DNA from: an uncultured Deinococcales bacterium
GTDB lineage: Bacteria; Deinococcota; Deinococci; Deinococcales; JAAFIG01
Assembly (NCBI GenBank): GCA_964244895.1
Contig: CAXTKV010000006.1
Span: forward strand, 13,519 to 41,732
Length of the DNA: 28,214 nucleotides
Direction: 5' to 3'
The notes beneath the pieces are model-generated. The model did not search any database. It saw nothing but the letters and a program-made list of their open reading frames with translations, and had not been told where the DNA came from. Shown one piece after another: positions 57 to 28,193 of the stretch (position 1 is its first letter; every line of letters starts with the position of its first letter). The translations under genes were made by a program, and so were the position numbers.

Positions 57-203
57 TCATTTCGTTGGTGAAAACAACTGCCCTTGGATAGGCGTCGCGG
101 CCAGGCCGCCGCCACCGAGCGTGCTCGGACCGGCGAGAACCACACTGGAGGCGACAACCAGAACGGCACCGACAACGACCGAAACGCGCCTGAAATTCTT
201 CAT
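57..203 (-). CDS. Small secreted peptide precursor, 48 aa: MKNFRRVSVVVGAVLVVASSVVLA-GPSTLGGGGLAATPIQGQLFSPTK
   Basis: Translated by hand (below the ORF-track cutoff). ATG at 203 has a strong RBS (AGGAGGAG) just upstream, and TGA is at 57-59. Basic N-region, hydrophobic core and a V-L-A signal peptidase I site. Confidence 0.8.
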   Translation of the reverse strand: MKNFRRVSVVVGAVLVVASSVVLAGPSTLGGGGLAATPIQGQLFSPTK

Positions 204-384
204 CGTTCTCTCCTCCTGATGTCACGACAGACCGTAGGAGTGAGCAACGTTGGGTTCGTAGAGGGAGAACGCCAGAAACGCTTAGGAACGCGTCCAGAAA
301 AGAGTTTTCGTCACGTGGAGGCTCGAATTCTTCCGAGACTCGATCCTTCAAAACGGCCCGATCCGAAAATGCAAACCCGACAGC

Positions 385-430
385 AACACCGTCCGCCACG
401 CAATGTTGCTGTTGCGCGCTGGACGATGCT
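385..430. repeat. REP-like palindromic element copy
   Basis: AACACCGTCCGCCACGC...GCGCGCTGGACGATGCT. Confidence 0.75.
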
Positions 431-633
431 GCCGAGAAGTGATTCAGTTTTGCGTTGGCACAGTTCTTTCATCACGAAGTTCTGTGCAGACCACGTGCGA
501 TGGTTGTCCCGATTTTTTCTGGAACTCTCGTGTCAGCCGCGCCGAGTGAGTTCAAAACCCCTCGAGAGCCGGAGCTTGAACCAAAGATCCGATGCCTGGC
601 CAAAAACGGGCCGCTCAAACCGCTAGCAGTACT

Positions 634-639
634 TATAAT
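634..639 (+). promoter_or_regulatory. Putative -10 box (TATAAT) for the TPR-BTAD regulator
   Basis: Perfect TATAAT about 32 nt before the TTG start, with RBS GGAGG at 662-666. No clear -35 box. Confidence 0.5.
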
Positions 640-671
640 GTTGGTGCCGCGAGGTTTGATCGGAGGCGCCA

Positions 672-2594
672 TTGAATTCGATCCTTGAGAGCGTGCTTGC
701 CGCCCGCTACGACGATGGATGGCGACTCTTCCAGGGTTTACCGAAGCCCACGCCGACGGATGAACGGTGGGCTGGACTTTGCCTGTTCAACCTCCAGCGC
801 CCGCTCGAGGCGCGCGAATTGCTGTTGCAGGCGCGCGGGCATGGTTGTGAAGCATCGGCAATCGAGTTGGCGACCGTATACCGTCATCTCGGTCAGAACG
901 ACACCGCAGGGGCGGTTCTTTTAAGCTTCGATAGCCTGCAAGCTACGGCTTTCGACCGGGCGCTCGCGGCCCGCGAACGAGGCATGATCGAATACGCTGC
1001 CGGTCATCTTCACAACGCGGCGGACGCGTTTGAAACCGCATGGGCTGCGGCCATGGGTGCACCTCAGAGATCATCCCTCGTTTCCGGCATCGCCTTCATG
1101 CTCGGTCGCGTTCTGTCCGAACAGGGTTGCTCGGATCGGGCATTGCACCATCTCGAGACTGCTCTTTCGCATGCCAATCCTGCCCGGCGCATCAGCGTTT
1201 TGGCGGTACGCGCCGAATGCCTGATCTACCTTGGACACTTCGAGGCTGCCAACGACGACCTCGAGCAGGCGCTCAACGGCGTGCTTCAGGTTCCGGCGGC
1301 GCTTCCGGGCTTGAGATACGTAAAAGCGCTCCTGTTTCGAGCGCGCGGCCAGTATCGGGCTGCTGAAGACCTCCTGCGCTCAGCTGTGCTGTCCGCCCAC
1401 AATGCCAACGAGTCGGAAACAGAGCTTTACGCGGAACTCGAGGCGTGCGTCGTGGCTGCCTGTCTCGATCAGATTGCAATGGCACGAGCGCATCTTGCGC
1501 GTGCGAAGATTCTCGCCTCAAACGCAAAATGTCGCGCGTTGGTGGACTGGAGGGAAGGTATGCTCCTCGCTTTCTCGGGTGATCCCAGATCGATCCCGAG
1601 GCTCGAGGGCTCACTCGAGGCATTCGAGAATCTGGCACTCGAGCGGGAGTCCGGCTGGATTCGTCTCACGCTCGCAGAGGCCTGTCTGCGCCTGGGGCGA
1701 GAGGCGCAAGCCGAGGAATGGTTGAACGCCGCTACCGACACTCGCTACGGCCTGGGCGAGGGCGCTGGGCTTTGGCTCGAGTTGCGCTCACTCAGATCGG
1801 TTCTCGAATACCTCGAGAATCTACCGCAGGACGCCTACGCCCGTATTCTCTACGACGACCTCAGCGCGCTGAATGGCAGCGCACCGTTGCCGCTCAAGCT
1901 TCTGACGCTCGGGCAGGTGGGATTGCTCGCCGGTCGCCACAAATTGCGCCTGAACGCCGGTATGGCGGTCAGCGCAGAGGTTCTGTCGTACCTCCTGAAC
2001 CATCCGGGGCGCAGCCTCGAGCGCATCTTGGCCGACATTTTTCCGAACGTACTGCCGGATAAGGCCAAAAATTACTTTCACCTCGTTCGCTATGAATTCA
2101 AGCGCGCTGTTCGGGGCGCATCGATCCCGTTTAATGAAACGACGCGCACGTACACCGTCGACTTGGGCGGGCTGCACCTGGACTGGGATCGCGCGAGCTT
2201 GTTGCGCTCACTCGCTCTCGGCGGCAATACGGGTTTGCGCCGCGCCCTGGCCATCTACAAGGGAGCCTTTCTGCCGCAGTCCGAAAACGAGTGGGCCATC
2301 GCGGAGCGCGCGAGCCTCGAGTGGAGGATCATCAAGCTTGGACTCGAGGTGATCGATCAGCATTTTATCGATGGCGAGTTCTCGATCTGCCTCGAGTTCA
2401 CCGAACGCCTTCTCGAGATCGAACCGTTGAACGAGGCGCTGAGCAGCTATTCGATACGCGCGATGAAAGCGCTCAAGGGCACGCTGGCGGCCCAACGGGA
2501 ACTCGAGCGCCTAGAGAGCCGCTTCATCGACGAGGTTGGCGAGATGCCACCGTCCCTCGAACGCCTAAAGCGCGACCTTCTCACGATCCATTGA
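672..2594 (+). CDS. TPR-repeat transcriptional regulator with C-terminal winged-helix and BTAD (SARP-like) domains
   Basis: 640 aa. About 400 aa of Ala/Leu-rich TPR-like helices, then LTLG...EVLSYLL..HP..SLERI..DIFP...KNYFH (OmpR-like wHTH) and RRALAIYKGAFLP...EW...R...LEIEPLNE (BTAD). No Walker A motif. TTG start with GGAGG RBS. Confidence 0.8.
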   Translation: MNSILESVLAARYDDGWRLFQGLPKPTPTDERWAGLCLFNLQRPLEARELLLQARGHGCEASAIELATVYRHLGQNDTAGAVLLSFDSLQATAFDRALAARERGMIEYAAGHLHNAADAFETAWAAAMGAPQRSSLVSGIAFMLGRVLSEQGCSDRALHHLETALSHANPARRISVLAVRAECLIYLGHFEAANDDLEQALNGVLQVPAALPGLRYVKALLFRARGQYRAAEDLLRSAVLSAHNANESETELYAELEACVVAACLDQIAMARAHLARAKILASNAKCRALVDWREGMLLAFSGDPRSIPRLEGSLEAFENLALERESGWIRLTLAEACLRLGREAQAEEWLNAATDTRYGLGEGAGLWLELRSLRSVLEYLENLPQDAYARILYDDLSALNGSAPLPLKLLTLGQVGLLAGRHKLRLNAGMAVSAEVLSYLLNHPGRSLERILADIFPNVLPDKAKNYFHLVRYEFKRAVRGASIPFNETTRTYTVDLGGLHLDWDRASLLRSLALGGNTGLRRALAIYKGAFLPQSENEWAIAERASLEWRIIKLGLEVIDQHFIDGEFSICLEFTERLLEIEPLNEALSSYSIRAMKALKGTLAAQRELERLESRFIDEVGEMPPSLERLKRDLLTIH

Positions 2595-4416: not shown

Positions 4417-4525
4417 CACGCGGATCGAAGCGGACTCAGCCACGCGGATTGAAGCGGACTCAGCCACGCGGATTGAAGCGGACTCAGCCACGCGGATTGA
4501 AGCGGACTCAGCCACGCGGATCGAA
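4417..4525. repeat. 24-bp tandem repeat CACGCGGAT(T/C)GAAGCGGACTCAGC, about 4.5 copies
   Basis: Units at 4417, 4441, 4465 and 4489, plus a partial at 4513-4525. Overlaps the stop codon of the permease gene. Confidence 0.95.
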
Positions 4526-5413
4526 ATGCTCGCGCAACCACTCGCCCAGCAGGTTGACCCCGAGCGCGGTCAGCGCGATGGCCGCACCGGGTGCGAGCGC
4601 CATCCACGGGTAGACCGTCAGGTACTGCCTGCCCAGCGAGAGCATGTTGCCCCAGGATGGCACTTCGGGCGGAACGCTCAAACCCAGGAAACCGAGACCC
4701 GCCTCGTAGAAGATCATCGCGCTCGTCTCGAAGGTGGCGAGCGTCACCAGCGCCCCGGCGATGTTCGGCAGGACGTGCCTGAGGATGATTCTTCCGTCCG
4801 GGCAACCGAGCGCCTTTGCCGCTTCCAGGTACGGTTGGCCGCGCAAGCGCAGCACCTCGCCGCGCACCAACCGCGCGAACACGGGCGAGCCGGTCACGCC
4901 GAAGAGCAGCACGACGTTGAGCAGACTCCGCCCCAGCACCGCCGCCACCACGATCACGAGCATCAAATAAGGCACGCTCAAAATCAGGTTGGTCAAAGCG
5001 CTGATCACCGCGTCCGTTCGATCGCCATAATATCCGGCCAGCAGCCCGAGAACCCCGCCGATCAGCGACGCCAGACCGACCCCGCCCAGCCCGACGACGA
5101 GCGAGATCCTTGCGCCGTAGATGACCCTGGAAAGCACGTCTTGCCCGAGCGCGTCCGTACCCAACGGGTGCGCCCGCGCGCCGCCCTCGAGCCAGACCGG
5201 GGGCAATTTGGCGCTGCTTAAATCGCCCGCGTCCGGCGCGCTGGGTGCGATCAACGGCGCGAAGATGGCGGCCAGCACGAGCGCCAGCGCGATCAATCCA
5301 CCCGCGATGCCGCCCGCGTTGCGCCGCAGGAATAGAGTCCGAGACTGTCCGGGACGCGATTCAGGAACACCGTCCGGCACGGTGCTTTTGGACTTCGGGC
5401 TCGAGACGGTCAT
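4508..5413 (-). CDS. dppC: Peptide/nickel ABC transporter permease (DppC/OppC family)
   Basis: HPLGTDALGQDVLSRVIYGARISL, the EAA loop (YLEAAKALG...RHVLPN) and PSWG motifs. Start reassigned to ATG 5413, which gives an ATGA overlap with the upstream permease stop. Confidence 0.88.
   Translation of the reverse strand: MTVSSPKSKSTVPDGVPESRPGQSRTLFLRRNAGGIAGGLIALALVLAAIFAPLIAPSAPDAGDLSSAKLPPVWLEGGARAHPLGTDALGQDVLSRVIYGARISLVVGLGGVGLASLIGGVLGLLAGYYGDRTDAVISALTNLILSVPYLMLVIVVAAVLGRSLLNVVLLFGVTGSPVFARLVRGEVLRLRGQPYLEAAKALGCPDGRIILRHVLPNIAGALVTLATFETSAMIFYEAGLGFLGLSVPPEVPSWGNMLSLGRQYLTVYPWMALAPGAAIALTALGVNLLGEWLREHFDPRG
5342..5388. repeat. REP-like element copy inside the 5' coding region of dppC
   Basis: AGACTGTCCGGGACGC...AACACCGTCCGGCACGGTGCTT. 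Confidence 0.7.
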
Positions 5414-6330
5414 TGCGCGCTCGAGACGCGCGGATCGAGCAAGCCGTAGAGCGCATCGGTGAGAAATTGCACCGCGATGGCGAACAGCGAAACAAAAATC
5501 GTGATCGCCTGAACCAGCGGGAAATCGCTGTCGCGCACCGCGTCGTTCAGCAATCCGCCCAGGCCGGGCCAGGCGAAGACCGTCTCGATGTAAACGCTGC
5601 CGCCCAGAAGGTAGGTGAACTGCACGCCCGCCACAGACACGACCGGAATGATCGCGTTCCGCAACACGTGCCGCCAGGCCACCCGGTTCGGCCCCAGACC
5701 TTTGGCGGTGGCGGTGCGCACGAAGTCTGCGCGGCGCACCTCGAGCGTCGCGGCTCGGGTCAGGCGGAGGAGTTGACCCAGACCCGCGAAACCGAGCGCC
5801 ACGGCGGGCAGCACCAATGAAGCGAACGAATCCCGCCCGAAGCTCGGGAACAACCGCCACTGCACCGCGAACAGCAGGATCAGCAGCATCGCCAGCACGA
5901 ACCCTGGAACGATCTGCCCGGAAAAGGCCAGGGTCTGCGCGAAGGAATCCACGATTGATCCCGGCTTCATGCCCGCCGCCAGCCCGAGCGGCACGGCCAC
6001 CGCGAGCGCGAAGGCGAGCGCCGCGAACGCCAGTTCGAGGGTCGCGGGTAAGCGCTCGAGGATCAACGAGAGGTTCGGCGTCCTCGAGCGCACTGATTCG
6101 CCCAGATCGCCGCGCAGGGCGCGCGAGACGTATTCCATTAATTGTGCGATCACCGGACGATCCAGTCCGAGTTCGGCGCGGAAGGCCGCGCGCTGCTGGT
6201 TGCTGGCCTCCTTGGGGAGCATCAATGAAGCCGGATCACCCGTCAGTCGCACGCTGAAGAACACGATCACGACCGCGCCCAGCACCAACAGCAAAGATTG
6301 GGCGGCCCGCAGACCGAGGTAGCGCGCCAC
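5410..6330 (-). CDS. dppB: Peptide/nickel ABC transporter permease (DppB/OppB family)
   Basis: GDPA...GLDRP...GDLGES, ERLPATLEL, FVRTATAKGL, ETVFAWPGLG and DFPLVQ motifs. Start reassigned to GTG 6330 with a GAGGG RBS. Confidence 0.88.
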   Translation of the reverse strand: MARYLGLRAAQSLLLVLGAVVIVFFSVRLTGDPASLMLPKEASNQQRAAFRAELGLDRPVIAQLMEYVSRALRGDLGESVRSRTPNLSLILERLPATLELAFAALAFALAVAVPLGLAAGMKPGSIVDSFAQTLAFSGQIVPGFVLAMLLILLFAVQWRLFPSFGRDSFASLVLPAVALGFAGLGQLLRLTRAATLEVRRADFVRTATAKGLGPNRVAWRHVLRNAIIPVVSVAGVQFTYLLGGSVYIETVFAWPGLGGLLNDAVRDSDFPLVQAITIFVSLFAIAVQFLTDALYGLLDPRVSSAQ

Positions 6331-6338
6331 GTCAACCC

Positions 6339-6403
6339 TCACAGGAACACCGTTCAGCACGGTGTTCCTGTGATACTCGAGCAATGCGCGCTGGACGGTG
6401 ATT
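6339..6403. repeat. REP-like palindromic element copy
   Basis: TCACAGGAACACCGT-TCAGC-ACGGTGTTCCTGTGA...GCGCGCTGGACGGTG. Confidence 0.8.
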
Positions 6404-6486
6404 CTCGAAAGCCTGAATTGGATTTGCAGGGGCGACGCATGCGCCGCCCCTGCGCGAAAGAACCCGCCATCCTGGAGTTGCAACAA

Positions 6487-8007
6487 TCACTTCAGGCTCA
6501 CGGCCTTGAGGAAATACTCCTCGGCGGCGCGCGGCTTGTAATCCACCACGCGGCTCGAGACGGCCTCGAAGATCACGGGCTGGTAGAGGTAAATGAACGG
6601 CGGATCGTCGTACATGGCTTTCTGAAGTTTGGCGTACATCGCAGCTCGAGCCTTGCGATCCACGGTCGTGCGAATCGCGTTGATCTGCTTGACCAGATCC
6701 GGGTCGCTCCAGCCCGCGTAGAAGTTCTCCGGGATGAGCGCACCGAGCAGGCGCGGCAGGGCCTCGCCGACGGTGCTCGACCAGGAATCGACGTACATCG
6801 GGCCGACCGCGCCGTAATTGGGTTTGCTCCAGAAAGCGTTCGAGGTGCGGAACTCGAGGTTGACATCCACGCCGATCTTGTCCAGGTCTCGCTGCACGCT
6901 CAGGCAGACCTCGTTGATGTTGACGTAAGCGTCCGTCGGGCAGCCCATGCTGATCGAGAAACCCTTCAAGAAGCCCGCGTCCGCCAGGAGTTTCTTGGCG
7001 CGCTCCGGATCGTAGGGGTAGGGTTGCACGCTCTTGTCGAAGCCCAGGTTGCCCTGCACCAGGAAGCCCGAGACCAGGTTGGCCTGACCGTTGAAGATCG
7101 CCTTGACGATGCCCGGACGGTTGACCGCCAGGTTCAGCGCCTGCCGGACGCGCTTGTCCTCCAGGGGCGATCCCTTGCCGTTGCCCATGTTCTTGAAGGC
7201 CACGTAGTACACGCGGTCGTTCGGGTAGTTGATGACGTTGACGGAATTCACGCCCTTCAACGGCGCGATCAGGTCGGGTGTGAGCCTGTTGGCGATGTCG
7301 ATCTCGCCGGTCTTGATGGCGGCGACGCGGGTAGTCGGGTCTGGAATGATGCGGAAGGTCAACTTCTGAACCTTCGGCAGGCCCTTCTCCCAGTAATTCG
7401 GGTTGGCTTCGTACTCGATCCGGTCGCCGGAGGTGCGGCGCACGAACTTGAACGGCCCCGTCCCGACCGGGCTCTGCGCGAACTTATCCAATCCAACTTC
7501 CTTGATGTACTTCGGCGGAACCGCCGCCCAGAAGCCCGCCACGTTGGTCAAGAAGAGCGCGTCCGGTTCGGCCAGCACCAGCTTGACGGTGTACTTGTCC
7601 ATAACCTTGACATCTTTGACGACGCTGTAGGTATCCGCGTAATCGTTGGATTTGTCCTTACCAGTCTCCCAGGTGGCGACCACGCTCTGCGCGTCGAAGT
7701 CCTCGCCGTTGTGGAACTTGACGCCCTGACGCAATGTGAAGGTGTACTCCTTGCCATCCTGGGACACGTCCCATTTTGTGGCCAGAGCCGGTGCGACCTC
7801 GCCGTCGTCGTCCACCCACACCAGGGAGTTGTACAGGGGTGAAGACGCGTTCCCGGCGGTGCGATCCGCCGTGCGCGGCATGAACAAGGACTTCGGGTCG
7901 TTGGCGAGCGCGATCCGCAACTCACCCGTGCGCGTTTGCGCGAGCGCCGCCAGTGAGATACCGACGAGTGCGGTCAGCGTCAGGCTGGCGAGGACTTTCT
8001 TGTTCAT
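6487..8007 (-). CDS. ABC transporter substrate-binding protein, family 5 (DppA/OppA-like)
   Basis: Signal peptide MNKKVLASLTLTALVGISLAALA, then PALATKW...YTFTLRQGVKFHNG, PVGTGPFKF and RVRQALNLAVNR. Start reassigned to ATG 8007 with an AAGGGGGG RBS. Confidence 0.9.
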   Translation of the reverse strand: MNKKVLASLTLTALVGISLAALAQTRTGELRIALANDPKSLFMPRTADRTAGNASSPLYNSLVWVDDDGEVAPALATKWDVSQDGKEYTFTLRQGVKFHNGEDFDAQSVVATWETGKDKSNDYADTYSVVKDVKVMDKYTVKLVLAEPDALFLTNVAGFWAAVPPKYIKEVGLDKFAQSPVGTGPFKFVRRTSGDRIEYEANPNYWEKGLPKVQKLTFRIIPDPTTRVAAIKTGEIDIANRLTPDLIAPLKGVNSVNVINYPNDRVYYVAFKNMGNGKGSPLEDKRVRQALNLAVNRPGIVKAIFNGQANLVSGFLVQGNLGFDKSVQPYPYDPERAKKLLADAGFLKGFSISMGCPTDAYVNINEVCLSVQRDLDKIGVDVNLEFRTSNAFWSKPNYGAVGPMYVDSWSSTVGEALPRLLGALIPENFYAGWSDPDLVKQINAIRTTVDRKARAAMYAKLQKAMYDDPPFIYLYQPVIFEAVSSRVVDYKPRAAEEYFLKAVSLK

Positions 8008-8036
8008 GATGAACCCCCCTTGGGCTGAACATCCAG

Positions 8037-8087
8037 GAATGCCTTCCTGGACACGTATTTCCTCGTGCGTTCCGAGGTGTTCTCGAG
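8037..8087. repeat. REP-like element, degenerate copy
   Basis: GCCTTCCTGGACACG...GCGTTCCGAGGTGTTCTCGAG. Confidence 0.5.
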
Positions 8088-8255
8088 CCCCGACATTCGG
8101 GGTGCGCTCGAGCCTCAACATTCCGGGCGAGTCAGAAGTTGAATGGAACCCACGAGAAATAACAGCCTCGCTTCATGGAACTGTCACGCGCGCGGTCTGC
8201 GGCACGCGTTTGAACTGCCGTCGTTGACCCCGAGCTCAAGGTTCGATGCGCGAAG

Positions 8256-11667: not shown

Positions 11668-11744
<77 letters not shown>

Positions 11745-11765
11745 ATCTTGGTCGTGCCGTACATC

Positions 11766-11854
11766 TGGCGGAGAGGGAGAGATTTGAACTCTCGGTACCT
11801 TTTGAGTACGCAGTCTTAGCAGGACTGTGGTTTAAGCCGCTCACCCACCTCTCC
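11766..11854 (-). tRNA. tRNA-Ser(GCT)
   Basis: GGAGAGGTGGGTGAGCGGCTTAAACCACAGTCCT-GCT-AAGACTG, long variable arm, GTTCAAATC, CCA end. Confidence 0.96.
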
Positions 11855-11878
11855 ACGGTCTTGAAAGTGCGGCGCGAG

Positions 11879-11968
11879 TGGCGGAGGGTGAGGGATTCGA
11901 ACCCCCGGTGGAGTTACCCCCACTGCAGTTTTCAAGACTGCTGCCTTCAACCGCTCGGCCAACCCTCC
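11879..11968 (-). tRNA. tRNA-Ser(TGA)
   Basis: GGAGGGTTGGCCGAGCGGTTGAAGGCAGCAGTCT-TGA-AAACTG, long variable arm, GTTCGAATC, CCA end. Confidence 0.96.
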
Positions 11969-17233: not shown

Positions 17234-18121
17234 TCAACGAGCCCACTCGAGTGATCGACCGATCACCAATTCCGTCATGACCTCATGGTGCGTGTTTTTC
17301 ATAGGGATAGGTAACGCCTCGAGCCGATGACCTAGAGCGAACTGTGCCACTTCAGGTGCGTTGTCATACGTCATGACAAAATCACCACGAAGTCTTTCGA
17401 CTATCCTAAATAGGTGTTCGTGGTTCAGTTCAAAATGGTTGTATAGGCGATTCCCGGCCTTCTTACCGCCTGCGCTGTACGGAGGGTCGATGAATGCCAC
17501 GACCCCAGCATCGTCCGGGCGGCGTTCGAGTTCAGCGATGCCATCGCCGTGAATGACCGTGATCTGATCTCGAAGCGATGCGAGCTGCAGAATGCGCTTT
17601 TTAAGGGTTTCTGGATACCACCTCGAACGTAAACCCTTACCGTTCTCGCCTTCTTTGATCATTCCTGCGCCCGATGCAAGGATGCCACCACGGTTGACGC
17701 GGTTTCGAATGATGGTTTGAAATGCTTGATCCTCTAGCGTTATGAAAGGGGCAGCGAGCGTTTCGAGCACGTTCTCGAGCCTCAGATCGAAGGTTACAAT
17801 GCGTTCGGCGAGCGCGTTCGCATTGCCCTGGAAAATAGTTTTCCAAACGCTCACCACCTGTTCGTCCAGTTCAACGAGCGTGACGTGATCAGCCAGATTC
17901 TCGTATAAAACCGTCACACCGACGCTCGCCCCGCCGGCGAACGGCTCAATGAACTCAAGGGGTCGCGCTTGGCGACTCGAGAGCCACCTCTTGAGATACG
18001 GCACGAACCACGTCTTCCCGCCCGGATACCGAAACGGGGAAAGCTGCTTGACCGACGCGACGTTCACGACCCGCTCCGTCAGCGCGGGATGGTCGAACAA
18101 AGGTTGCTCTGTGGCCGTCAT
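17234..18121 (-). CDS. D12-class (Dam-like) N6-adenine DNA methyltransferase
   Basis: SPFRYPGGK, FIEPFAGG (SAM binding) and DPPY (catalytic). ATGA overlap with the endonuclease gene. Confidence 0.92.
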   Translation of the reverse strand: MTATEQPLFDHPALTERVVNVASVKQLSPFRYPGGKTWFVPYLKRWLSSRQARPLEFIEPFAGGASVGVTVLYENLADHVTLVELDEQVVSVWKTIFQGNANALAERIVTFDLRLENVLETLAAPFITLEDQAFQTIIRNRVNRGGILASGAGMIKEGENGKGLRSRWYPETLKKRILQLASLRDQITVIHGDGIAELERRPDDAGVVAFIDPPYSAGGKKAGNRLYNHFELNHEHLFRIVERLRGDFVMTYDNAPEVAQFALGHRLEALPIPMKNTHHEVMTELVIGRSLEWAR

Positions 18122-19002
18122 GACGACCTGAACAGCTCATCGAGACTCGAAGCGTCGGGTGCGTTGCCGTCTTCCCCGAGTTTTTCGTCGAGACGTTCCT
18201 GAAGATGTGTCTCGAAAATCCCGAGCGGCCCAGCTTCGGTATGGGTGATTTGAAATAATGCGCGTTCGAATTTCGTGTACACGGTATTCGCGTGGACGAG
18301 GTTGTACCGATTGGTTGCGGAATCGAGCGCGAGATCGTACACGAACCACGCGATGTCGGCGTCTTTCTCGGGCACTTGATCAAGATTTGGCAGCGTATTG
18401 AAAAAAGCCGTGTGCAAGGCCACAGCCATACGTTTTTTCCAGGTGTGCAGAATGCTGCCCTTGTAAATCAATTGCGGAGCCAGGCGTTTGCGGCTCGAGG
18501 ACAGGTAATCCGCCCTCGGATACTCTTTTCCTGTGTAATCGCGCGTTCGGTACTGAACAGGATCGGCGACAAATTGCTCAAATGGGCGACGAATGTTTCC
18601 GCTGATGTACACGCCCTGAATCTCGAGGGAGCCGAAGTCCGTCAATCGGCCTTGATCGTCGTAGGAGACGAGTACCAGATCGATGTTGCCCGCCGATTTA
18701 CCGCGCTTGTCCTTGAGGCGAATCTCGGTCAGCGAAGTCCAGTGCGTTCCCTCAGGAAAGAAGAATCTTGCAGCGTCCTCAGCGATTAGCCAGTGCTGTC
18801 GGAATCGGACGGGGCAGGTGATGGCGAGCGTTTCGCCATCGATGACGCTGCACACGCCGAGCGGATCGTTTGCCTTGTCTTTGGTGCAATTTGGAACCTT
18901 GTTGCCGAATGGACACAATCGTAGCGTGCGATGGCGTTCCGCGTTCAAACTTGTGTTGTCGATGGGGAAGCCGTAGACCTCGGCGATGGGTTGTTTGGGC
19001 AT
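18118..19002 (-). CDS. NotI-family type II restriction endonuclease
   Basis: N-terminal Cys4 motif (CPF...CTK...GVCS...CPVRF) and PD-(D/E)xK-like GNIDLVLV...SLEIQ. Start reassigned to ATG 19002 (MPKQPIAEVYGF). Confidence 0.8.
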   Translation of the reverse strand: MPKQPIAEVYGFPIDNTSLNAERHRTLRLCPFGNKVPNCTKDKANDPLGVCSVIDGETLAITCPVRFRQHWLIAEDAARFFFPEGTHWTSLTEIRLKDKRGKSAGNIDLVLVSYDDQGRLTDFGSLEIQGVYISGNIRRPFEQFVADPVQYRTRDYTGKEYPRADYLSSSRKRLAPQLIYKGSILHTWKKRMAVALHTAFFNTLPNLDQVPEKDADIAWFVYDLALDSATNRYNLVHANTVYTKFERALFQITHTEAGPLGIFETHLQERLDEKLGEDGNAPDASSLDELFRSS

Positions 19003-19035
19003 CCTGACGCGAGTATCGCACAGATGGAAAGAAAT

Positions 19036-19093
19036 CTCGAGAACACCGTCCCACACACGATCTAGAGAATGCGTCGTGGACGGTGTTCTTGAG
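19036..19093. repeat. REP-like palindromic element copy
   Basis: CTCGAGAACACCGTCC...GGACGGTGTTCTTGAG. Confidence 0.9.
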
Positions 19094-19100
19094 TAGTCAC

Positions 19101-19130
19101 AAAAACAGGAGCGGCAACCATTGCCGCTCC
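19101..19130 (-). terminator. Intrinsic terminator after E1beta
   Basis: GGAGCGGCAA-CCA-TTGCCGCTCC hairpin followed by TGTTTTT on the minus strand. Confidence 0.85.
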
Positions 19131-19152
19131 CGTTCGTCTCGAGCATTCTTTA

Positions 19153-23470: not shown

Positions 23471-26200
23471 TCAGACCAGCCGCAGACGCATTTCTGGTGA
23501 GGGCTCGAGCCCGAATTCGCGCCGCAAACGATCGGCAAATTCCTGGTAGCGGCGTTGCGCGCTGACGCGTCTGCCGGAGCGCAGCATCAGATTGAGCAAC
23601 CCGGCGAATGCCGCTTCGTGGGTGGGATCGCGCGACAGCAACCACTCGAGGGCGTCCTCGGCGGCCTGGGGTTGGCTGGCCTCGAGCCCGGCGGTGTGGT
23701 CGAGAACCGCCTGGAATACTCGCTTGCGAAGATCAAATCGGGTTTCCTCGATCGCCTCGAGGTCAAATCCGGGCAGCAATTCGGCGTACAGGCTTCGCAC
23801 CGCATCGATCCTGCCCGCCCTGAGCGCCTCCTCGAGATCCCACAGGTCGACCCTGGCGCGCGCCAGTCCCGACTCCAGAAGGTGCGTCGGAATGCCCCAC
23901 GGCTCGAGCGCCTTGCGCAGGGCGTTCAGGTTGACGTGCAGGTTGTTGCGGCTTTTTTCGGCGTCCGCCTCCGGCCAGAGCATCTCCGCGATGCGTTCCC
24001 TGGGCAAGCGCAGCGCCAGCAGCGCCAGAATGTCTTTCGGACGGGCTGTCAGGCTGACGGATTCCCCGAGTGACCGCACCTCGAAGCCGCCCAGCACGCG
24101 CAACTCGAGCGGCGGGATGTCCGGGTGACGGTGTTGGATCGCCTCGCGCCAACCGGAGCGCAGCACGGTTTCAATCGGGTACGCGCTGGCGTGTTCGGGA
24201 CGGTTCTTGGGGAGTTCCTTCAAATCCAGCAGCGTCGGCAGGATCCGTGCACCGGCGTCGGTGACGCGCAACAGCGCCTCGAGGTGGGCTGGTTTACGCG
24301 TGATTCGGTATTGGGCGGCCAGCGCCAGCATCCGCAACCAGCGTTGGGTCGCCTCGAGCGCCGGGGCGAGAACTTCCAGGGCGAGCTGCGTCTGTTTGAG
24401 TTGGTGCAAGCACAACGCCATCTCGACGCGCAACAGCGGCGTGTCGAGGCGTTCGAGGGTGCCTTCGAGCATCGCTTGGGCTTCCGCGATTCGGCCCGCT
24501 TCGCGCAGGCAACGCGCCCAGTGCGCCCGCACCAGACCCAACGGGTGATCCTCGCCCTCTCGTGGCGCGCCCTGCGCCTCGCGTTCGAGCGCCGGGAAGG
24601 CCGCCAGCTGGCCCCGCAGGGCCGCCGCCTCGATCCGTCCAGCCAGCGCGCTGGCCGGGTTGTGTTCGCTCATGCCCTCGAGTTGCTCGAACGCCTCGAG
24701 CGCGAGTTCGTTTTCGCCCAGGAGCGCCCGGATGCGGGCCACCCAGCCGATCGAGCCCGCCCGGTTGAACAAGAAGTGATCCGGTGATTCCAGGCTGGTT
24801 TGCAGTTGCTCGAGGTGCCCGAGCAGCTTGCCGTGAAGCTCCCAGCGCACCAGCGCCAGGTTGATGATGCCCGACTGACGGCGTTCCGGCCTGATCGACG
24901 GCACGGCCCGTTCGAGCAAGCTCTCGGCCTCCGCCCAGCGCCGAGCCTCGATGTAGAAGGTCGCGGCGTTGGTCAAGAACACCGCGCGCGAATGCTCCGT
25001 GACCCGCTCGAGCCACGGCTGAGCCTCGACGAACAGGCCGTCCGCCCGATCGAACTCGCCGGGTTGCAGGTCGAACAGCGCCCAACCGAGCGCCTCGAGC
25101 CGCTGGTTCGGGGTCGCGTCCGGGTGTCGAGCCGCGCCCAGGTAGGCCGCCATCGCCGCCTCGTGCTGGCCCGTGACGGAATAGGCCCAACTGAGCGTCA
25201 GCAGGCGTTTCGGGTTGAGTTCAGCAGTCTTCTGCGCGGCACACAGCGCGTGCCAGCGCATCACCCCGACCGAATCCTGGTGGGCCAGTTCAATGTTCTC
25301 CAGGAGTACGTGCAGCTTTTCCAGCAGGCCGCTGCGGGCGCAGGCCTCGGCCTGCAAGCCGATCGGCAGGCGTTCCAGACCCGCCGCGACGGCATCCCGA
25401 ACGCCATCGGCGTGGTGCGCCAGCACCGATTCCGCCGCCAGCGGGTGCAACCGAAAACCGCTCTCGAGCGCCTGCACGAAGCCCAGACCGGCCAGCTTGA
25501 AGGTGTTCGCGTCGGCGGCGGTATTGGGCAGGTACGGCAGGGCGCAGAGGAACATCACCTCGCGCCATTCCTCACCTTCCAGGCTCTCGCGCACGCCGTC
25601 CCAGAGGGATTCTTCGTCGGGTAGTTCTCCGGTCAAAGCCGCCATGTGCAACGGCAGCGACCAGCCGCGCGTTTTGTGCCAGGCCGGGCTGGCGTCCCGA
25701 TCGCCGAACAGCGCGGCGGCTTCCTGGGGCGTGAAGGCCAGGTGTTCGGCCTGCAGGTGAATCAATCGGCCTTCGGTGCGGGTGCGCAACAATTCCGGCG
25801 TCCGCAGGCGCTTGCGGCTGGCCAGCAAGACCAGACCCTGCGCGTATTTCAACAACGGCCCCAGCGATGCCCCGACCTCCGGGTCGTTTTCCAGGTCTTC
25901 CAGGATCACCAGCGTTTTTTCCTGTTTGAGCGCGGTCAGCACCGCCGTCCACGACGCGGATTCCGCCAGCCCGAGCGCGAGCGCCAACGGTTCGCGCGGG
26001 TCGCCATCCACCAGCGCCAGCCAGATCACGCGCCAGGCGTCCGCTTCCAGTCTGGACGCCCACTGGGACACCAGCACGCTTTTACCGTAACCGTAGGGCG
26101 CTTCCAGCCAGACGACGTAACCCGGTTCCTCGGGCAGCAGGCGCAGCAGCCGGGGGCGTTCCAGAAACAGTGCGCTGGGTTTGGGACGGAAACCGATCAC
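23471..26200 (-). CDS. Large MalT-like ATPase/TPR/wHTH-BTAD transcriptional regulator
   Basis: LERPRLL, Walker A APYGYGKS, LAFTPQEA and TRGW (MalT-like N-terminus). C-terminal LRVLGGFEV...LWPEAD...NLHVNLNALRKAL and DPTHE...GLEPSPE (BTAD). Confidence 0.85.
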   Translation of the reverse strand: MIGFRPKPSALFLERPRLLRLLPEEPGYVVWLEAPYGYGKSVLVSQWASRLEADAWRVIWLALVDGDPREPLALALGLAESASWTAVLTALKQEKTLVILEDLENDPEVGASLGPLLKYAQGLVLLASRKRLRTPELLRTRTEGRLIHLQAEHLAFTPQEAAALFGDRDASPAWHKTRGWSLPLHMAALTGELPDEESLWDGVRESLEGEEWREVMFLCALPYLPNTAADANTFKLAGLGFVQALESGFRLHPLAAESVLAHHADGVRDAVAAGLERLPIGLQAEACARSGLLEKLHVLLENIELAHQDSVGVMRWHALCAAQKTAELNPKRLLTLSWAYSVTGQHEAAMAAYLGAARHPDATPNQRLEALGWALFDLQPGEFDRADGLFVEAQPWLERVTEHSRAVFLTNAATFYIEARRWAEAESLLERAVPSIRPERRQSGIINLALVRWELHGKLLGHLEQLQTSLESPDHFLFNRAGSIGWVARIRALLGENELALEAFEQLEGMSEHNPASALAGRIEAAALRGQLAAFPALEREAQGAPREGEDHPLGLVRAHWARCLREAGRIAEAQAMLEGTLERLDTPLLRVEMALCLHQLKQTQLALEVLAPALEATQRWLRMLALAAQYRITRKPAHLEALLRVTDAGARILPTLLDLKELPKNRPEHASAYPIETVLRSGWREAIQHRHPDIPPLELRVLGGFEVRSLGESVSLTARPKDILALLALRLPRERIAEMLWPEADAEKSRNNLHVNLNALRKALEPWGIPTHLLESGLARARVDLWDLEEALRAGRIDAVRSLYAELLPGFDLEAIEETRFDLRKRVFQAVLDHTAGLEASQPQAAEDALEWLLSRDPTHEAAFAGLLNLMLRSGRRVSAQRRYQEFADRLRREFGLEPSPEMRLRLV

Positions 26201-26529: not shown

Positions 26530-26979
26530 ATGAAACACCTGATCTTCACGCTCGGACTCGCGCTGGTGCTGACGGCCTGCCCGTCTCAGAACGGCAACCC
26601 GCCGATCTCGAGCGGCATCTGGCGGGCCACGCTCACCCCCGATCCCGGCCAGAGCCTGCCGACCACCGCAGACACCACCAATCTTTACGAGCTGAACTTC
26701 GGCAGCGCCAGCCTGACGGGCTGGCATTACGCCTGCGATGCGGGCTGGATCAACTGCGCGCCGAAAGGCTACGGGCTGGCGGTCACGGGCGCGCTGTCTG
26801 CGGGCGCCGCCGATTTTCAGTTCACGTACAACTCCACGCCCTCGATCCCGCCCGTGACCGTCAAGATCACGGGTGCGTTCACGACGGGCGGCTTCACGGG
26901 TCGTTTCCAGCGAACCGCGCCGTCCCTGTCGCCCGTGGTCGGTTCGGCCACGATGGTCTGGGTTTCGTCTCAACGCTGA
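26530..26979 (+). CDS. Lipoprotein of unknown function
   Basis: AGGAG RBS. MKHLIFTLGLALV followed by lipobox LTAC. Beta-rich mature region with a Cys pair. Confidence 0.85.
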   Translation: MKHLIFTLGLALVLTACPSQNGNPPISSGIWRATLTPDPGQSLPTTADTTNLYELNFGSASLTGWHYACDAGWINCAPKGYGLAVTGALSAGAADFQFTYNSTPSIPPVTVKITGAFTTGGFTGRFQRTAPSLSPVVGSATMVWVSSQR

Positions 26980-27005: not shown

Positions 27006-28193
27006 ATGCTGAAACTCACCCGTTCCACCGTCCGCACCGCCCTGCTGATCGGGCTTTTGTGCTCGAGCGCCGCCGCCCAAAACCTGCCGTCGCGCGCCGC
27101 GCCGCGCGGCATGAGCAGCCTGCCGACGGGTGGTTCCGGGCGCGTGCTGGCCACCCGACTTTCCGGCAGCCGCAGCGCCACCAAGATGTTCCAGGCTTTG
27201 ATGATCGGCATTGACGGCTATTTTGACGCCAAGCCGCGCGTGCTGAACGCCTTCCGCGACCCGGCGGACGCGCAGCTGCAGGCGTCCTTCAGAACCAGCC
27301 TGCGCGGCGTGCCCGTGATGGGCCTGATCGGCGTGGCCACGCAGGGTACGAACGCCAGGACCGTCGTGCTGTTCGATCAGACTCGAGCCTTCGCGGATTC
27401 CGTGGATCGGCTCGTGCGGGTCGCCACAGGCCAGAATGGGGGCGCGGCGGGTGCCCCGGCGAACATCCCGATGACCCGCACGCCCCTGCCGGACGGTTCG
27501 GGCAGCATCGACCTGGCGGCGGGCTGGGTCATCAAGTACGCCAACCAGGGCGCGACCGACATCGCCGGTCCCGTTCCGGGCAGCGGCATGAGCCTGGGCG
27601 CGGTGCTGACCGTGCCGTACACCTCGAGCGACCCCGCGCAGGCGCTGGTGATGATGGCCCAACAGATGGCGCGCACCCAGGGCAAAACCATCCGCGTCAC
27701 GATCATCGACAACCAGCCGACGCCGTGGGCGCAGGGCGGTCGGGCATCGTTCTTGCGCTACCGGGTGGTGACGGGCGCGCAGAGCATGGATTACTTCGGG
27801 TTGATCGGCATCACGCCGTTCGAGCAGAACAGCGTGTTTTTCTACAGCTCGTTCATTCAAGCCCCGACCGCCAGCTTCGCGCGAATCCTTCCTGCGGGCC
27901 TGAAAAGCTGGGCGAGCTGGAGCATCAACCCCGCCGTGTTCGCCAGACGCCTTCAAGAGACCGCCAGAACCATGAAGGAAACCGGCGATCTGCTCTCCGG
28001 TGCGAACACCGACCGCCAACGCGCCTTCGATGGCGTCAACGCCGGTTGGAGCCAGTACGTCCGTGGTGTCGCCACGCTCGAGGACACCGAGCGCAACCGT
28101 TCGGAAGTCGATCAGGTCTTCGCCGATAACGTCGTGCGGGACGATCCGAACAATTTCCGGATCGTGCCACCCAGCGAGTTGCTGCCGCGCTGA
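27006..28193 (+). CDS. Secreted protein of unknown function
   Basis: AGGAGG RBS, signal peptide ending AAA-Q, 395 aa. Confidence 0.8.
   Translation: MLKLTRSTVRTALLIGLLCSSAAAQNLPSRAAPRGMSSLPTGGSGRVLATRLSGSRSATKMFQALMIGIDGYFDAKPRVLNAFRDPADAQLQASFRTSLRGVPVMGLIGVATQGTNARTVVLFDQTRAFADSVDRLVRVATGQNGGAAGAPANIPMTRTPLPDGSGSIDLAAGWVIKYANQGATDIAGPVPGSGMSLGAVLTVPYTSSDPAQALVMMAQQMARTQGKTIRVTIIDNQPTPWAQGGRASFLRYRVVTGAQSMDYFGLIGITPFEQNSVFFYSSFIQAPTASFARILPAGLKSWASWSINPAVFARRLQETARTMKETGDLLSGANTDRQRAFDGVNAGWSQYVRGVATLEDTERNRSEVDQVFADNVVRDDPNNFRIVPPSELLPR

Follow-up and report, generated by a model that had tools for sequence, protein, structure and literature searches.

A divergent gene for a predicted secreted peptide beside an ATPase-less TPR-SARP regulator: a candidate receptor–peptide cassette in Deinococcales

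Introduction

The known systems most like the locus reported here include RRNPP(A) (Rap-Phr, NprR-NprX, PlcR-PapR and AimR-AimP), and according to reviews, in the sections available, peptide quorum sensing through cytoplasmic receptors belongs to Bacillota. For Deinococcus, the only systems listed are acyl-homoserine lactone and autoinducer-2 systems (accessible part of PMC6300522), and that part makes no mention of BTAD or SARP. Here we analyse a window of 28,214 nucleotides from an uncultured Deinococcales bacterium (assembly GCA_964244895.1, contig CAXTKV010000006.1, positions 13,519 to 41,732), in which a 48-residue pro-peptide gene is transcribed away from a 640-residue regulator with TPRs and a SARP-type output. 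Coordinates are those of the window unless a contig is named. We consider it likely that the two genes form a conserved receptor–peptide cassette, in which the regulator activates the peptide gene and the returning peptide binds the TPR groove.

RRNPP(A) systems are recognised by a pro-peptide of 10–100 amino acids and a receptor of 250–500 amino acids with C-terminal TPRs (PMC10075063, in the portion available), and by an Asn residue that is conserved on the concave side of the TPRs (PMC4794775, likewise in part). Repeated pheromone copies are reported for Phr pro-peptides (excerpts of PMC11343458 and PMC9765709) and for AimP (excerpt of PMC11343458). Leaderless communication peptides are encoded by open reading frames (ORFs) of 8–9 amino acids (PMC10518010, in part), and the direct repeats bound by the SARP protein AfsR have their end 8 bp upstream of the −10 element (PMC11301090, in part).

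Full-text literature searches, which most subscription papers lay beyond, found no paper describing the present pair. It is not described in the accessible part of PMC4007540, no family peptide motif occurred in the searched D. deserti supplements, and the available part of bioRxiv 2023.09.19.558401 mentions neither MalT nor Deinococcus. RRNPP_detector would discard this family because of its length and domain-order filters, which drop N-terminal TPRs.

Results

The peptide gene

The pro-peptide gene has the following features, each given with its basis.

57..203, minus strand: pro-peptide gene, 48 amino acids, ATG at 203 and TGA at 57-59 (sequence and family conservation)
210..217, minus strand: ribosome-binding site AGGAGGAG, 6 nt before the ATG (sequence)
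132..203, minus strand: predicted Sec signal peptide, residues 1-24, cleavage between V-L-A and G (heuristic)
60..131, minus strand: predicted mature peptide, 24 amino acids, Gly-rich (alignment with relatives)

The initial annotation of this DNA had described an ORF with a ribosome-binding site, one half of it a signal peptide and the other a 24-residue mature part, and both sequence and heuristic bear this out. The protein reads MKNFRRVSVVVGAVLVVASSVVLA followed by GPSTLGGGGLAATPIQGQLFSPTK, with the predicted cleavage point between them. Signal peptides were called throughout by our own heuristic (basic N-region, hydrophobic core, A-x-A); the window pro-peptide has a basic start, a peak 10-residue hydropathy of 3.2 and V-L-A at the end. 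It has no match in Pfam, NCBIfam or Atlas and no sequence homologue in its own genome. A 180-residue plus-strand ORF over the peptide gene (84..626), with no ribosome-binding site flagged, was set aside as a shadow frame.

In an alignment of 36 pro-peptides, the Ala before the mature part is the sole invariant column besides the initiator Met. The mature part had been expected to begin with Gly-Pro after this Ala. The commonest forms are instead Ala followed by DP or by G, with G at the first mature position in 38 and D in 30 of 96 peptides. The window's first residues, GPSTLGGGGL, align with those of relatives such as DPGTVGGGGL and DPGSLGGGGI, and the tail varies. The active core is likely these first ~10 residues, with boundaries estimated from the alignment.

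Conservation of the pairing

The peptide and regulator genes lie 469 bp apart and are divergent. Besides this regulator the genome has five further copies, of which one contains an internal stop and another is truncated. All six copies are paired with a divergent signal-bearing ORF of 37–48 amino acids, and the mature part differs from copy to copy. Of 251 genomes of the order, 105 gave a profile match at E ≤ 1e-40, with an uneven spread across bacterial families (17/18, 38/71, 44/70, 0/23 and 5/68 genomes). Homologues with a species name are all Deinococcus, including D. murrayi DSM 11303, D. phoenicis, D. taeanensis and D. alpinitundrae, and the nearest Atlas cluster is mostly Deinococcota, in agreement with the host first suggested from the sequence. 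Scores above 350 bits were reached by at least 150 clusters (50% identity), for the most part across nearly the full length, and intact relatives are about 520–660 amino acids long. TPR-BTAD clusters of similar length are also present in Pseudomonadota, Chloroflexota and Actinomycetota. Pattern scans using the single regulator protein gave no relative in genome or metagenome contig collections. Neither phages nor viral contigs gave a match, the latter queried with the NDYG subgroup only (see below), so that these searches gave no indication of a phage system.

To scan the flanks of homologous regulators, as the initial annotation had proposed, we used 140 loci with an intact regulator N-terminus, of which 133 have 700 bp or more of upstream sequence. 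In a strict test we required a divergent ORF of 30–85 amino acids with a signal peptide; 110 of these 133 family loci passed, versus 38 of 1774 long ORFs of this genome; five of the 38 are the family itself, leaving 33/1769. Signal ORFs elsewhere at family loci were found on the same strand upstream in 3/133 and downstream in 2/115. The strict test missed 23 loci, among which L016, L065, L068, L075 and L155 have a peptide by eye or at looser settings, L055 has its peptide downstream, and the peptide is degenerate at L059 and frameshifted at L118.

Within this genome, 22 BTAD matches comprise four family members (all with a peptide), two without a readable ORF and 16 others; these 16 gave two nominal small-ORF matches, both lacking a Gly-rich mature part. 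A genome-wide search for such peptides, with a pattern derived from the family, found four, all adjoining family regulators. The gene tables for two plasmid records from Deinococcus do not list the homologous peptides, but are known to be incomplete. The proportion of nonsynonymous differences (pN) was below that of synonymous ones (pS) in 25/25 close peptide pairs (pooled pN 0.135 versus pS 0.49, uncorrected; the window ORF has no close partner). The peptide ORFs are therefore constrained as protein, and the two genes are a real conserved cassette. On these points, and in the co-variation reported below, the checks named in the initial annotation speak for its peptide-signalling proposal.

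Domains and fold of the regulator

The following features belong to the regulator gene.

672..2594, plus strand: regulator gene, 640 amino acids, TTG start
662..666, plus strand: ribosome-binding site GGAGG before the TTG start (sequence)
634..639, plus strand: TATAAT, likely −10 box of the regulator gene (sequence; a sigma-70 scan gave no paired −35)
672..1871, plus strand: N-terminal TPR superhelix, residues 1 to ~400, predicted peptide sensor (Pfam TPR, AlphaFold model, fold matches)
1884..2594, plus strand: C-terminal SARP module (wHTH and BTAD), residues ~405-640, predicted DNA-binding activator output (PF03704, fold matches)

Pfam and the AlphaFold model agree with the arrangement first proposed, an N-terminal TPR array and a C-terminal wHTH/BTAD with no ATPase. 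The BTAD match (PF03704) covers residues 522-637, and the regulator has neither an ATPase family match nor a Walker A motif. In the model (predicted local distance difference test 95.5) the protein is all-helical to about residue 400, followed by the wHTH and BTAD. The best fold match of the sensor is MalT domain III (1hz4; Z 30.9, root mean square deviation (rmsd) 3.5, 342 aligned), followed by Rap105-peptide (Z 27.5, rmsd 3.3 over 323) and the eukaryotic APPBP2 (26.6); NprR (Z 26.2), RapI (24.7) and AimR (23.1) also match. Residues 376-640 of the model match the AfsR SARP domain (Z 17.0) and EmbR (Z 15.7). Foldseek with the whole model returned mostly generic eukaryotic TPR proteins.

In a single alignment of 525 columns (probability 99.9), the family profile is colinear with a MalT-like STAND-SARP protein, matching its residues 502-1063. 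Sequence-profile searches against the PDB give no support for RRNPP ancestry, because NprR and RapJ rank below generic TPRs. The initial annotation had read the protein as a reversed RRNPP architecture. The order itself stands, TPR first and SARP-like output last; the better description is a MalT/STAND-type regulator minus its ATPase module. On the simplest account of its origin, the family probably derives from a STAND regulator that lost its ATPase, separately from the RRNPP receptors.

Promoter repeats before the peptide gene

Two elements were predicted upstream of the peptide gene.

231..236, minus strand: TACGGT, predicted −10 box of the peptide gene (73 family promoters have TAnnnT at a comparable distance)
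248..286, minus strand: imperfect direct repeats, predicted wHTH binding sites (leave-one-out matrix)

The repeat units are CCCAACG (248-254), CTCTACG (257-263), TCTGGCG (270-276) and CCTAAGCG (279-286). They adjoin the peptide promoter and lie about 390 bp from the regulator start. As a stand-alone repeat they are weak (score 3); with the leave-one-out matrix they score 5.8, a value reached by 2/120 control promoters. The sigma-70/terminator scan gave nothing within positions 1-900, and the repeat finder gave only chance-level pairs.

In the window's subgroup, which comprises 69 loci, exact repeats of 6-mers upstream of the peptide genes were observed 11, 11, 13, 10, 8 and 5 times at lags 11, 12, 22, 23, 32 and 33, with 1.4–2.1 expected (1.8 at lag 22). 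A TAnnnT anchor was found for 56/69 promoters, 40 after dereplication, and the anchored promoters share a tandem CT(A/C)A(A)CG-like motif at −27..−21 and −17..−10. Summed information at −28..−13 was 5.56 for the 40 promoters versus a null maximum of 1.82 in 1000 draws from the 120 control promoters, and 33/40 promoters, each left out in turn, scored in the top 5% of controls. Judged by eye, repeat type follows the sequence of the recognition helix. The pair very probably comprises a regulator and its predicted target gene.

Two sites outside this arrangement were observed. L114 has no peptide gene; its repeat-plus-−10 unit immediately precedes a lipoprotein-like gene, giving an orphan regulator with a plain target. 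On G000:C63, minus strand near 1890, CCTAAGCG precedes a −10 box with the spacing seen in the family, in front of a 235-residue secreted TPR-like protein; it is the sole such exact site in the genome and a candidate distant target.

Peptide types and co-variation with the sensor

Peptide types follow receptor clades. Type 1 comprises the window's DP/GP-Gly-rich peptides, type 2 peptides of 33 amino acids ending in about seven residues such as GxxxSQR, and type 3 peptides with NDYG/DFG cores. An exact block of 5–11 residues is repeated two to four times in 19/115 pro-peptides, and L009, L063 and L064 have two tandem peptide genes. Nested in the NDYG group is a leaderless subclade (L152, L164, L166, L168) with 10-residue ORFs led by strong ribosome-binding sites, divergent from the regulator and doubled in three of the four loci. 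These ORFs (MSKAIKDFGN, MTEAIRDFGI, MTQGIANYGI, MTEAIRNYGS) lack a signal and share the DFG/NYG core with sister pro-peptides, which suggests that the core acts in the cytoplasm.

The initial annotation had proposed testing receptor and peptide for co-variation. In the window's subgroup (n = 54 gene pairs) the mature peptide tracked the TPR region, given the DNA-binding domain (DBD), at 0.44, and the DBD, given the TPR region, at −0.05; the signal-peptide control against the TPR region gave 0.008, so that co-variation there goes beyond the control. For 32 sister pairs, we compared the mature peptide with the 42 positions predicted to lie in the groove; with the rest of the TPR region allowed for, change in the two was related at −0.40, a value reached by 13/1000 random position sets; the signal control gave +0.19 and outer positions +0.10. 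L017 and L018 share 83% DBD identity and 45% TPR identity; they differ at 69% of the groove positions and have unrelated repeated cores. Predicted groove positions carry R, E, Y, H and W, and the NDYG subgroup has Asn at one of them (59%). Overall, the co-variation is supportive but modest.

Two further variants were recorded. Mature peptides at L087, L090, L091, L092, L098, L029 and L002 end in CxxC, a possible disulfide or metal-binding tail. In the f2 subgroup (L093-L124, L153-L158) the regulators are about 540 amino acids long with a shortened BTAD, the peptide lies 350–600 bp away and an GGTTGGGAGAC-like word recurs upstream of the peptide start.

Neighbouring genes and other features

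The window starts directly after an assembly gap, and two features near the cassette are candidates for a link with it.

4508-8121, minus strand: Opp/Dpp-type ABC transporter genes encoding a family-5 binding protein and permeases, about 2 kb beyond the regulator; candidate link to the peptide
G000:C6 12184-13359, minus strand: PAS-domain gene, 391 amino acids, likely histidine kinase, across the gap on the same strand as the peptide

The PAS gene, downstream of the peptide gene across the gap, is a possible co-regulated target. The genome encodes 22 family-5 peptide-binding proteins, that of the window included, and their presence does not show use for re-import. Across the family we scanned 50 of 103 ORFs extracted from about 1.1–1.3 kb of sequence beyond the peptide. 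Neighbours vary by locus and include GGDEF, HD and PAS proteins, S8 and M23 peptidases, lipoproteins and many proteins with no Pfam match; c-di-GMP enzymes and secreted proteases are among them. Because they vary, no single output is evident, and the outputs of the cassette are likely local and variable.

Elsewhere in the window are a second BTAD regulator of the STAND type (909 amino acids, Walker A; 23471-26200, minus), divergent from a lipoprotein gene (26530-26979, plus) and a secreted protein without Pfam match (27006-28193, plus), with no small peptide; 4.5 copies of a 24-bp unit, 97% identical, in the gap between a convergent pair of genes (4417-4525); a restriction-modification pair of a D12-class adenine methyltransferase beside a NotI-family endonuclease (17234-19146, minus); and three tRNA genes, Arg(ACG), Ser(GCT) and Ser(TGA) (11668-11968, minus).

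Discussion

A receptor–peptide circuit would account for the conserved pairing as follows. The C-terminal SARP module is predicted to bind the direct repeats and activate the peptide gene. The pro-peptide would leave the cell through Sec, lose all but a short Gly-rich core of its first ten or so mature residues and be re-imported by an oligopeptide transporter, for example one of the 22 family-5 peptide transporters. The core would then be bound in the TPR groove and switch the SARP module. In PlcR and NprR there is positive feedback, and ligand binding activates MalT, in contrast to the inhibition seen in AimR or Rap; we slightly favour the peptide as an activator over an inhibitor. Since each paralog has its own peptide, this genome would hold several parallel channels.

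Several observations weigh against this circuit. About 15/133 loci are apparent orphans, with no peptide even by eye. The sensor's best fold match is MalT domain III and not an RRNPP receptor, and there is no conserved groove Asn, no TPR column in the window's subgroup exceeding 31% Asn. The co-variation matrices share ancestry, and linked genes co-diverge anyway. The two remaining subgroups do not discriminate, since there the signal control follows the TPR region as well (0.57 and 0.36). The basis for assigning groove positions was the TPR register, not atomic coordinates. As to the promoter, the repeat-lag enrichment is absent in the other two subgroups, and the 120 control promoters all come from this one genome. 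Finally, Deinococcales have an outer envelope layer of the diderm type, so that release to the medium is not assured.

Part of this evidence would fit a peptide that is merely an output, with the MalT-like domain sensing some other small ligand and activating a secreted microprotein with a surface, metal-binding or antimicrobial role. MalT domain III is itself a sugar sensor; the promoter repeats speak for regulation of the peptide gene and not for binding of its product; the L114 unit precedes a lipoprotein gene with no peptide; and CxxC closes some of the mature parts. Against this, the peptides differ between paralogs and follow receptor clades, and L017/L018 have unrelated repeated cores beside similar DBDs and divergent TPR regions; nor would the groove-position signal or the signal-less 10-residue forms be expected if the secreted product were independent. 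We therefore regard an output-only peptide as unlikely.

The ligand–receptor pair could also be the same and the peptide cycle only via the cell's own periplasm, as a timer or a gauge of export, protease activity or uptake. The diderm-type envelope and the many peptide ABC transporters are compatible with such a loop, and the signal-less variants could act without leaving the cell; yet allele diversity, paralog expansion, tandem peptide genes and multi-copy cores are as in cell-to-cell RRNPP systems (PMC9765709 and PMC11343458, in the excerpts available), and streptococcal leaderless peptides are still secreted (PMC10518010, in part), which makes confinement to the periplasm quite improbable. 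That the small ORF is instead a bacteriocin or a ribosomally synthesised and post-translationally modified peptide precursor, under a cluster-type SARP regulator, is brought to mind by the SARP-type output, the repeated cores and occasional redoxin or protease neighbours. The 50 scanned neighbour ORFs, however, contain no recurring tailoring enzyme or dedicated exporter, the signal is an ordinary Sec signal with A-x-A and the neighbours change between loci; such a precursor is highly improbable.

With the receptor–peptide cassette as our preferred reading, a wider proposal can be made, tentatively and at somewhat less than even chances: that Deinococcales invented peptide cell-to-cell signalling independently of Bacillota, from a MalT/STAND regulator that shed its ATPase, made its TPR sensor a peptide receptor and came to drive a pheromone gene of its own via SARP boxes. 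The family would then have diversified into many private channels and arrived anew at features of RRNPP systems, namely repeated cores, tandem genes and leaderless 10-residue signals. If the receptor–peptide pair works in the proposed way, it would be a second, probably convergent, receptor family for peptide signalling, in a different phylum, and would give ATPase-less TPR-SARP regulators their first ligand class. It would also supply more than 100 natural receptor–peptide–promoter triples for specificity studies and orthogonal biosensors. The pair is directly testable in cultured Deinococcus strains with short synthetic peptides.

Among known systems, SARP activators (AfsR, EmbR) resemble the output module, with an OmpR-type wHTH followed by BTAD (shortened in the ~540-residue subgroup) and, as a family-level motif of predicted sites, direct repeats that stop about 9 bp short of the −10 box. 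In AfsR, however, the SARP module is N-terminal and followed by ATPase and TPR regions, whereas here it is C-terminal with no ATPase. MalT-like STAND regulators share a DT3-type TPR sensor preceding the DNA-binding domain, as the sensor fold and colinear profile indicate. Unlike them, the present family has no nucleotide-binding oligomerisation domain and no Walker A, and has a peptide gene next door, which is absent at this genome's STAND-BTAD regulators. The 10-residue ORFs without signal at L152, L164, L166 and L168 recall leaderless communication peptides (RopB-SIP clan), but with another receptor family and peptide chemistry, and they are not the window's form.

The likeness to RRNPP(A) extends to a small Sec pro-peptide encoded next to a cytoplasmic TPR protein, to cores that are repeated and peptide genes that occur in tandem, to the presence of many paralogs in a genome and to a TPR fold close to Rap105-peptide, NprR and AimR. 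By the published definition the 48-residue window peptide falls within the size range, and the Sec signal (by heuristic), gene adjacency and TPRs in the receptor fit too. The receptor differs in length (640 versus 250–500 amino acids) and in having its TPRs N-terminal (residues 1-400) and its wHTH-BTAD C-terminal, where RRNPP proteins have an N-terminal HTH or 3-helix bundle; a conserved groove Asn is lacking in the window's subgroup, the core mostly follows directly after the signal peptide, the genes are always divergent and the family is found in Deinococcales. Because of its length, TPR position and groove residues it does not belong to RRNPP, yet the receptor likely works in the manner of an RRNPP system.

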